From the IMG/VR virus record IMGVR_UViG_3300037041_001930: a stretch of DNA of 64,000 bases; one strand, written 5' to 3'. This document shows, one piece after another, positions 2,848 through 63,999 of this stretch (position 1 is the stretch's first letter; the number at the start of each line of letters is the position of its first letter). The notes under the pieces are model-generated. The model did no database searches, was not told the origin of the DNA, and saw nothing but the letters and a program-made list of their open reading frames with translations. The translations under genes were made by a program, and so were the position numbers. The stretch is from a virus. Its lineage: Duplodnaviria > Caudoviricetes.

Positions 2848-3131
2848 GACTTCCTCCGGGGACCCACGAAGAAGTGATGGATGCCACTCCACTTCATGAC
2901 CACACAGGGATTCCCGCAATAGACCCCCTTGTAGTACCTGACTGCCCAATCATTGCGCAGGAGGAGACCGTATTTGCGGCCATACTTGTTGGCCTCCATC
3001 CATTCCTTGAGATCCTCTTTATCCGCATACTTCACGAAGGTGCGATAAGTGATCTCGCGGGAGCTGTCATCGAAAGCGTCGACGTGACACCCGCAGGCGC
3101 CCACGCAGGTTCCAATTAGGCAGTAGCTCAT
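2844..3131 (-). CDS. hypothetical protein
   Basis: MSYCLIGTCV... ATGA-coupled to tmk. Confidence 0.65.
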   Translation of the reverse strand: MSYCLIGTCVGACGCHVDAFDDSSREITYRTFVKYADKEDLKEWMEANKYGRKYGLLLRNDWAVRYYKGVYCGNPCVVMKWSGIHHFFVGPRRKS

Positions 3132-3850
3132 CTGACCTCCTCGAACTCGGCGAGCCATTGGGACGGTAGGGTCTCGTAGATCTTTTCTACGACTTCACGG
3201 GGGCTCGCCGTGCTGACATCAAGGACTGAGGTTGTAAAGGAGTGACCACTGAGATCGTGGAGCTCAATGGTGACCTGTTCGGCGCCCAGGTAACCGTCAT
3301 CGACCCGACGGCGGAAGTCATCGTTCGCGGATTCAAAGCGATCCTTGCCACGATCACCGACGAGGCGACTGCGGCGGACCTCAGGGGAAGCCCGCAGGAA
3401 CACGTAGTGGATGTGCTGGGACACCGGGATGTACTTGTCGAACAGATACAGCGCAGTGGAGATCACGAGCTGTAGGGGCACCCCGTTGCCGTAACTCTGA
3501 TAGGCCACCGTGCTCGGCCACAGGCGATCCATGATCACGGTGTAGCCATGGGAGAGAAGCCTGGCGGCCTCAGCCATGAGTTCAGCACGTGCTGCCAGGA
3601 ATCCGAAGAACAGAGTGGGCACCTCTGCCTTCTGGTTGGGATCCAGCAGGATCGTGCGGAGCTTCTCGCCCAAGGCGGTGGTCCCAGGATCCCTGAGGAT
3701 CTTCACCTTGTCCATTGAAGTCACCTTCCAGGGTGCCACACTTTGATCGATGACACACTGGGGGGTCACCAGGAACTCGGCGAGGTTGTGACATGCCAGG
3801 CTCTTGCCCGAGCCGTCTGGGCCATCCAGAATTATGAGTTTTGCAGTCAT
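3128..3850 (-). CDS. tmk: thymidylate (dTMP) kinase
   Basis: P-loop LDGPDGSGKS, RDPG, AARAE, MDRLWPSTVAYQ, RFES motifs; start MTAKLIIL at 3850. Confidence 0.93.
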   Translation of the reverse strand: MTAKLIILDGPDGSGKSLACHNLAEFLVTPQCVIDQSVAPWKVTSMDKVKILRDPGTTALGEKLRTILLDPNQKAEVPTLFFGFLAARAELMAEAARLLSHGYTVIMDRLWPSTVAYQSYGNGVPLQLVISTALYLFDKYIPVSQHIHYVFLRASPEVRRSRLVGDRGKDRFESANDDFRRRVDDGYLGAEQVTIELHDLSGHSFTTSVLDVSTASPREVVEKIYETLPSQWLAEFEEVR

Positions 3851-62649: not shown

Positions 62650-62758
62650 AAAAAGAAAGTCACGCCCACCCAACTATGACGCCTCTTTCGAGAGCGGTCA
62701 TAGTTGGGTGGGCGTGACTTCGTATAAAAAGGTTCGTCTTGCGACGATAACTTTTTTT
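62650..62758 (-). terminator. tandem terminator-like hairpins
   Basis: Perfect 24-bp stem 62657-62720 followed by TCTTTTTT on minus strand; second hairpin with GCAA loop and T-run. Confidence 0.65.
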
Positions 62759-62799: not shown

Positions 62800-62910
62800 C
62801 TACAGGGGTTTGAGTTTCCAAACCGCCCCGTCGGTGTCCTGCCGAATGAATACCCAGTGGTACCCATTCGGGGCTTGGGGAGGCTGGCTCCCCTTATGGG
62901 TGCGCTTCAT
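62800..62910 (-). CDS. 36-aa protein, paralog of 60160..60351
   Basis: SQPPQAPNGYHWVFIR..WKL; start may be further upstream. Confidence 0.45.
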   Translation of the reverse strand: MKRTHKGSQPPQAPNGYHWVFIRQDTDGAVWKLKPL

Positions 62911-63047
62911 GGCGTACCCTTTCCGCCGCTTTAGGCCCGGCCGGCCAATGCGCTCGTCTTTTACGCCGGGGGCGGCGACGTCCTCTGCGTTTATAGGGGC
63001 TTGGAACCCTCGATCTGACATCAGACAGATCGGCCGCATTACGTCAT

Positions 63048-63360
63048 AAAAAACTTGGGCAGTTTAACGACCTACCCAGGTCGTGGTGTTTCGTACACCT
63101 GAGTCCTCGGCTGCCGGCACAACACGGCGGGACCACGTATCTCAACAGTGGACAGTGAGTTCAGTGGGCTGTACGGCCCACCTTATCAGGCACCCAGCAC
63201 GGTCTCGCGACGCGTCTGTCCTGGTGCCAGCTACCCCCTCGATAACCCAGGGTAGCCAATTACCTTGCCGGAATACAAGGCGTGACCTTGTTTCAGGGAC
63301 GAGTCCCTGCCTTAATAATAAATAAGATTCCAAGCCTTTTAACGACCTGCTCAGGTCAAA
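63048..63360 (-). ncRNA. candidate structured non-coding RNA (~315 nt)
   Basis: No convincing ORF; at least 7 short helices in series, possible 6-bp pseudoknot, ends in hairpin + T6 on minus strand. Confidence 0.4.
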
Positions 63361-63366
63361 GCCTTA

Positions 63367-63681
63367 TCAGCCTGCTGCGAGGACCCCCTGCGCTGCGGCA
63401 GAACGTCGCAGCGCTTCACACATCGACTGGCACGCTGTCCAGTCGATGTGGTGGGTGCACTCCGCGTCGTCCCATACAAACGGGGCATCCCCTTTAGTGA
63501 TGTCCTTCTGCCTGGCGATCCTTGCCAGCGCGGAGACGCAGCTCCTTACGTTCTGGTCCCCTCCCCATTTTTTAACCATATACAGATCGTGCTCCAGCTG
63601 AGCATCTGATCCGAAGGCTCCATACGGTTTCGGGAAGCTGGCGAGAACGGCCTCCGCTGTCATAATAATCATGCTCTTCAT
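63367..63681 (-). CDS. hypothetical protein
   Basis: MKSMII with AAAGGA RBS. Confidence 0.6.
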   Translation of the reverse strand: MKSMIIMTAEAVLASFPKPYGAFGSDAQLEHDLYMVKKWGGDQNVRSCVSALARIARQKDITKGDAPFVWDDAECTHHIDWTACQSMCEALRRSAAAQGVLAAG

Positions 63682-63737
63682 GCACTGTCCTTTCATAACG
63701 AGGTGAACCCACAGGGATCCAAAGCGGACCCCTATAG

Positions 63738-63999
63738 CAAGACAACCCTTGCACAGTGAAGTGCAAGGGTTGTCTTGGTGGGTGATGGAGATGTGGGTAC
63801 TGGGGTGAGCCAGAACTACTTAGGTCCATCACTATAATATACGACAAAACGGGGTTTTATTTAGGTAACCCCCTGGCGGGGGTCTATTTACGCTTACAAG
63901 CCTTATTTTAGACCCCATAAGGGCATGGACGTTAATCCGCCTGGATTAACGTGATTCCAGACCCCCGGCAGGGGTATTCACCTGGAGAAGTGAATACCC
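63738..63999. repeat. cluster of inverted repeats (17-bp, 6-bp, 10-bp, 5-bp and 10-bp stems)
   Basis: 63738-63777, 63868-63883, 63929-63952, 63961-63975, 63972-63999 with AT-rich linkers; continues to window edge. Confidence 0.7.

Follow-up and report, generated by a model that had tools for sequence, protein, structure and literature searches.

Gene content and layout of the locus

The window, i.e. the whole stretch of 64,000 nucleotides that was analysed, forms the last 64 kb of a 171.6-kb phage genome from IMG/VR. All credible genes around positions 63048–63366 are encoded on the minus strand, no Pfam or PHROG family is assigned to the products of the neighbouring genes, and the large terminase gene lies ~4 kb from the gap. 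The initial annotation had described the gap as the only large one without a credible ORF, which agrees with our analysis, where it spans 63048–63366. A complete related phage of 216 kb (G001, locus L002) was used for comparison. The features are given below in the order in which they would be transcribed on the minus strand.

63738–63777, no strand assigned: perfect 17-bp hairpin, conserved in G001, at the upstream border of the swapped cassette (63738–63054)
63367–63696, minus strand: ORF109, an ORFan gene, covered by homologue, Pfam/PHROG and G001 searches
63332–63357, minus strand: knot A, coremin-like mini-pseudoknot (GACCU-GAGC-AGGUC-GUUAAA-AG-GCUU)
63083–63331, minus strand: interior of 249 nt, covered by folding, z-scores and Rfam, Pfam and phage searches
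63057–63082, minus strand: knot B, coremin-like mini-pseudoknot (GACCU-GGGU-AGGUC-GUUAAA-CUGCCC)
63048–63053, minus strand: U6 tract between knot B and the twister, within the block conserved with G001
62977–63045, minus strand: type-P1 twister (RF03160, 63.5 bits, E 3e-13, full-length match)
62800–62910, minus strand: small ORF of 36 aa (MKRTH...KLKPL), with an orthologue of 37 aa in G001
61970–61904, minus strand: second, P5-type twister-like site (28.8 bits vs a cut-off of 37.6)

ORF109, for which the gene caller gives a version of 104 aa starting from the second ATG, ends with UGA, followed by an in-frame UAA, 9 nt ahead of knot A. The only cluster returned by the homologue search is the ORF109 protein itself, and an identical ORF109 is also encoded on a second contig (217 kb). 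The protein matches no Pfam and no PHROG family, and the gene is absent from the related phage G001.

On the other side of the gap, the 36-aa ORF starts 66 nt 3' of the twister and is preceded by a Shine-Dalgarno-like AAAGGG. It differs from its G001 orthologue by an in-frame indel and many substitutions, and is probably a genuine small gene that length filters passed over. Further along, a near-perfect 30-bp hairpin is found at 62657–62720, followed by a two-way terminator-like hairpin at 62734–62747. The 30-bp hairpin has a counterpart at the same place in G001 (L002 4124–4189) and draws spurious microRNA hits.

The two mini-pseudoknots and their relatives

The two hairpins that bracket the gap are present as annotated initially. 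They form a direct repeat of 20 nt (18/20 identical, 275 nt apart), which is found at no other site in the 171.6-kb genome. Each of them is part of a 26-nt mini-pseudoknot. In knot A the stem (hp1) is formed by 63357–63353 with 63348–63344, and the loop (63352–63349) pairs with 63335–63332, one of the pairs being G-U. The loop–flank pairing is complete (4/4) in both knots, and the two differences between the repeats are each compensated in the flank of the same knot. RNA-level elements on the minus strand, as had been implied, do exist: both bracketing hairpins are covarying RNA pseudoknots. The view of them as uncharacterised has to be given up, since they probably belong to a described kind of motif, coremin / xrRNA_C.

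Knot B has a nested alternative, a 10-bp hairpin of -12.8 kcal/mol that runs into the U tract; the T6 tract reported earlier for the minus strand is present at 63048–63053. Taken as a terminator hairpin, it has a 9-nt loop, a bulge, and AAG ahead of U6. A relaxed descriptor of the knot finds 3 sites in the 171.6-kb genome vs 0.4 expected, two of which are knots A and B, and zero sites in G001. The third candidate (G000:C1:20949, minus strand; AGCA-GGCCAG-UGCU-GUUAAA-GU-CUGG) lies outside the window and may be real or a chance match.

A pattern scan for related knots, which kept the stem and the GUUAAA linker constant and allowed any loop, yielded 61 viral contigs. The loops of these hits, mostly G-R-G-Y, depart strongly from random sequence and are complementary to the bases after the linker. 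Of 52 distinct, unselected hits to the exact pattern in other contigs, pairing is complete (4/4) in 24 at a single fixed offset, and is seen in 6 at the offset two bases further and in 0–1 at neighbouring offsets; when partners were shuffled among the hits (2000 trials), the count averaged 9.4 and reached 17 at most, vs the 24 seen. In a 35-row alignment all four loop–flank pairs change on both sides and 94% of the cells pair, compared with 29–45% when the partner is slid, values that are biased by the choice of rows for pairing. The strand of the knot is fixed by the many loop–flank pairs that are G-U. The set was gathered with a fixed stem sequence; the stem itself also covaries, since GACCU/AGGUC, as present in the window, is replaced by GUCCU/AGGAC in L078, a metagenome contig found via its twister and not via the knot. 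These comparisons place both knots in a widespread family of predicted H-type mini-pseudoknots, with a stem of 3–5 bp, a linker rich in A (GUUAAA) and pairing of the loop with the bases past the linker. No Rfam family covers the motif.

At most of the loci, the motif starts 5–13 nt past the stop codon with which a same-strand ORF ends, and no shared gene was found upstream of the knots across the loci. Among the carriers are tailed dsDNA phages that encode a portal, terminase or tape-measure protein, and also picorna-like contigs of dicistronic layout and one tombus-like contig that matches the Tombusvirus 5' UTR. In a 161-kb phage contig (L015, 1362–1807) a knot at 1511–1530 is located between two tRNA genes of an array.

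Coremin, known from beny-, cucumo- and many other RNA viruses, BNYVV among them, consists of a hairpin of 3–5 bp, a 10-nt spacer (G-UUAAA-CUAC) and, behind the spacer, another hairpin. Xrn1 is stalled by it, as are scanning and elongating ribosomes (Dilweg et al.: PMC6546385, PMC10520033, PMC10321173). Its first hairpin, hp1, requires 3–5 bp and a pyrimidine-purine loop-closing pair, and the change of CU to AA in the BNYVV element abolishes Xrn1 resistance (PMC6546385). In a Watson-Crick variant, xrRNA_WCC, bases of the loop pair with the spacer (PMC10321173). The three papers (PMC6546385, PMC10520033, PMC10321173) do not mention phages or bacteria.

Compared base by base, the predicted phage knots closely match coremin / xrRNA_C and its Watson-Crick variant. 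The hp1 stem GACCU/AGGUC has a U-A closing pair (C-G if it is read as 3–4 bp). The spacer of knot B, GUUAAACUGC, is identical to that of BNYVV in 9 of 10 positions, and the differing base is a G that pairs with the loop. In the spacer of knot A, GUUAAAAGGC, AG is present where BNYVV needs CU; copies of this class A are common in the family and covary. The CUAC of the coremin spacer is found exactly in several phage copies, and the L078 copies share the CGUC/GACG stem of BNYVV. In respect to the loops, GAGC and GGGU of knots A and B depart from the coremin consensus (YGAD or YGNNAD), whereas the Watson-Crick pairing of loop and spacer is shared with xrRNA_WCC; the loop–linker helix comprises 4–6 Watson-Crick pairs here, and 3 or non-canonical ones in coremin. 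The placement is also shared, at or just after stop codons, between genes and at the start of the 3' UTR, as are the tandem copies.

Coremin requires a second hairpin (hp2) directly after the spacer, whereas no simple hp2 directly follows knots A and B. In the predicted fold a 5-bp helix (GGAAU/AUUCC) closing a junction starts at once after knot A, while the next helix after knot B is P1 of the twister, 11 nt on; in L078 the knot is directly followed by the next knot or by a twister P1. To our knowledge, Xrn1 is absent from bacteria. The motif here would differ from coremin in its setting, a dsDNA phage of a host without Xrn1, and in the predicted position of one copy just ahead of a ribozyme.

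The twister ribozyme and the exchanged cassette

A type-P1 twister, overlooked in the initial annotation, begins 2 nt past the region, directly 3' of it on the minus strand. The alignment covers all model positions (1–68/68) with zero non-canonical pairs flagged, and the conserved blocks are all present (UAA, GC-GCC, CCAAGCCC, UAAA, GC-GAGG). The E value is 3e-13 when 4 kb is searched and 4.9e-12 for 64 kb, and the score of 63.5 bits is a near miss, 3.7 bits below the Rfam gathering cut-off of 67.2. The twister is 100% identical in G001 despite diverging flanks. The scissile bond of the env22 twister is located 5' of the A in AAUG (PMC6101554), and from this position the cut is predicted to fall between U63041 and A63040 of the minus strand. 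As in the type-P1 twisters of bacterial and phage operons, the match is full-length, intercistronic and followed by a ribosome-binding site and a start codon; the differences are the score under the cut-off, the coremin-like knot ahead of the twister and the P5-type site 1.1 kb downstream on the same strand.

The P5-type site is conserved in G001 except for a 4-nt loop insertion. The two sites are the sole hits in the window at E <= 0.1, and the sole twister-like sites in this genome, likewise in G001. They are ~1.1 kb apart, with three small ORFs between them, and double cleavage would therefore free an RNA with 5'-OH and cyclic-phosphate ends. A circular RNA between two ribozymes was considered for the gap and rejected, as there is no ribozyme at the 5' end of the region and an RtcB gene is found in neither this phage nor G001.

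A pattern scan for this twister subtype returned only G001 in IMG/VR and, in addition, six metagenome contigs. In L078/L080 two twisters each have a knot whose end lies 1–2 nt ahead of the P1 stem, a Shine-Dalgarno sequence and an ATG follow each twister, and upstream of the second twister the knots alternate with two related hairpins of ~90 nt. The paralogous twisters of L078 show compensatory changes relative to each other. On the reverse strand of L078 (~2900–3410 and 190–275 of the reversed sequence) at least 8 tandem coremin-like knots are present, along with two twisters. Four other twisters of the subtype have a stable hairpin after the stop codon instead of the knot. The presence of a knot, a hairpin or a terminator before the twisters points to a recurring design, in which a gene stop is followed by a stable fold, the twister and the next cistron. 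A scan of IMG/VR for a knot followed by a twister gave a single chance match, inside a gene, so direct adjacency of the two is not common for this subtype, and only one other phage with it was found. No report of the pairing of the knot with a twister was found in the literature that could be searched.

The flanks of the locus are common to both phages at 78–90% identity. The segment 63738–63054, which comprises ORF109 and the whole of the gap up to the U tract, is swapped in G001 for ~700 nt of unrelated, ORF-poor sequence that ends in a canonical 16-bp terminator hairpin with U9 just before the twister, at the place of knot B. Being exchanged wholesale, the region is the tail of a strain-specific cassette, whose borders are the 17-bp hairpin (63738–63777) on one side and the U tract with the twister on the other. 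In this two-genome comparison the 17-bp hairpin marks the putative upstream recombination border. The cassette of G001 (L002 2451–3146) is rich in hairpins, with repeated GGUCCCCU-AAAGGGAAA units. G001 also has an extra gene of 141 aa and unknown family, inserted right after the twister (L002 3260–3685).

The interior and the interpretation of the locus

The interior of 249 nt begins with an AU-rich stretch, which is followed by six or seven predicted GC-rich hairpins. The helices listed in the initial annotation are present in the minimum-free-energy folds of both strands. The fold of the whole region has a z-score of -2.7 on the minus strand and of -3.2 to -3.5 on the plus strand, and values of -2.5 or lower are found in 16% of the 250-nt windows of the neighbouring, mostly coding DNA (background mean -1.44, sd 2.1). 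For the interior without the knots (63083–63331) the values are -1.6 (minus) and -1.8 (plus). The folding energy of the interior is at the level of the genome background, and the stability of its hairpins is not above chance. In the comparison with shuffled sequences, which had been suggested as a way to refute a structured RNA, the interior (-1.6 vs a background of -1.44) comes close to refutation. The complementary hexamers GGACAG/CTGTCC and CCGGCA/TGCCGG are present in the sequence as described, but the long-range pseudoknot drawn from them is a match at chance level, because a single 6-nt complement is expected many times in 313 nt.

The searches of the interior were negative throughout. 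ARAGORN finds no tRNA or tmRNA, in line with the earlier statement, and no Rfam family is found inside the region, neither at curated cut-offs across the whole window nor at E <= 10 when 4 kb or 331 nt is searched. The ORFs of 63 aa (minus) and 80 aa (plus) in the region have no Pfam match, which agrees with the absence of a credible ORF stated initially; the Pfam search with a 33-aa interior ORF and the tblastn search of phages with the 63-aa ORF were empty as well. No stop codon directly precedes knot B. No DNA homologue of the interior was found in GenBank phages, in the whole G001 genome, or beyond the knots in 60 fetched loci. A hammerhead-like CUGAUAA ... GAAC in the interior was rejected, as the essential G8 is missing and no model matches. 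The proposal of one novel multi-helix RNA of ~315 nt is not supported, with an interior that has no homologue and folds like background. The landmark itself is real, but its reading needs revision: the two knots and the twister are the informative parts, and the core is unsupported as a conserved structured RNA.

On a slight balance of probability, ORF109 and the region, as its non-coding tail, form a strain-specific cassette within a minus-strand operon, in which the twister would cut the transcript and the knots would cap the ends of the gene and of the RNA. The RNA would contain, in order, the ORF109 stop, 9 nt, knot A, the 249-nt spacer RNA, knot B, AAG-U6-AU, the P1 twister, 66 nt and the 36-aa ORF. 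The polycistronic transcript would cut itself at U63041|A63040. The downstream mRNA would then begin with a folded, compact ribozyme and a 5'-OH, and we infer that the 36-aa ORF is its first cistron. The upstream RNA would end in a 2',3'-cyclic phosphate 16 nt past knot B, with the end shielded and 3' trimming hindered. Knot A, just past the stop codon, would set the coding part apart from the tail and may act as a roadblock to 5'-to-3' exonucleases or ribosomes. The interior would be cargo or spacer. Protection in the manner of an Xrn1 block is not available to the downstream fragment from a knot that lies upstream of the cut. The processing of polycistronic transcripts by bacterial twisters is a published hypothesis (PMC6765202).

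The segment from knot A to the cut could also be a real product, a stable non-coding RNA of ~317 nt (63357 to 63041) similar to sfRNA or to BNYVV ncRNA3 and serving as a decoy or a regulator; we consider this rather unlikely. Decay of the ORF109 message would stall at knot A, the twister would make the 3' end and knot B would guard it. Knots at both ends, together with the ribozyme, would give the RNA defined and protected termini. The bracketing of two ~90-nt hairpin RNAs by the knots ahead of a twister in L078 is consistent with such a product, as are the L015 knot between tRNA genes and the release of such RNAs by coremin in plant viruses (PMC10520033, PMC6546385). The interior, however, is conserved nowhere and folds like background, and G001 does without such an RNA. 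The layout of flavivirus sfRNA and BNYVV ncRNA3, a 3'-UTR segment that begins at a nuclease-blocking knot, is predicted here too, with the differences that the 3' end would come from a ribozyme and that the system is bacterial. For the phage this would mean, with the same tentativeness, an sfRNA-like armoured RNA made by a dsDNA phage: a coremin-type knot, described so far only in eukaryotic RNA viruses, would stall bacterial 5'-to-3' decay, and the RNA, with its twister-cut 3' end and the second knot as a guard, would act on the turnover of RNA in the host or on the expression of phage genes. An independent small-RNA gene, with its own sigma-70-like promoter in the AU-rich stretch and knot B with U6 as the terminator, is unlikely. 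The promoter-like elements TTAAAA and TATTAT, 16 nt apart (63342–63315), would place the start near 63308, the nested 10-bp hairpin of knot B (-12.8 kcal/mol) leads into U6, and a true terminator occupies the same spot in G001. The promoter, however, matches in 9 of 12 positions only, which is common for such sites, the linker of knot A overlaps its -35 element, and the U tract is set off from the main stem by three bases. The own-promoter explanation is weaker than both the operon-processing mechanism and the 317-nt RNA.

It is a little more doubtful still that nothing beyond the knots and the twister is functional, with an interior that is filler, or a decayed gene that cassette exchange left behind, and hairpins that result from GC-rich composition. 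The z-score of the interior (-1.6 vs the background of -1.44), the swapping of the whole cassette between relatives and the empty search for interior homologues are consistent with filler, whereas no remnant of coding homology was found and 249 nt left unused between two intact knots would be unusual in a compact phage operon. Very improbable, finally, is a DNA mobile element (a MITE or a derivative of IS200/IS605) with the 20-nt hairpin repeats as its ends, or an unrecognised ribozyme such as pistol. The repeats do occur at both ends and in the same orientation, but RNA pairing compensates for their differences, with G-U pairs on only one of the strands; the motif is also carried by RNA viruses without a DNA stage, and only two copies exist in this genome and none in G001. 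The local sequence is pistol-like, and in the P1-pseudoknot core of pistol env25 a hairpin is likewise followed by GUUAAA with the loop pairing downstream (PMC6101554). The partner strand in pistol, however, lies 17 nt further on, whereas in the knots it follows the linker directly; P2, P3 and the G-U cleavage site of pistol have no counterparts at the knots, and pistol (RF02679), hatchet and hammerhead give no match at E <= 10 on 331 nt.

What small ribozymes, twister included, do for bacteria and phages is a standing question (PMC6765202). The layout of gene stop, knot or hairpin, twister and ribosome-binding site makes operon processing with shielded ends testable at the bench, within the slightly favoured reading of the region as a cassette tail. 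The armoured RNA of ~317 nt, if true, would give the phage twisters and the knot a defined job. The 26-nt knot could also serve as a compact RNA-stabilising part. A knot that blocks nucleases and ribosomes, known from marine RNA viruses and those of plants and fungi, recurs nearly base for base in tailed dsDNA phages, which suggests either a mechanical RNA device that is self-sufficient and functions across both host domains or an exchange of RNA modules among very different viruses.
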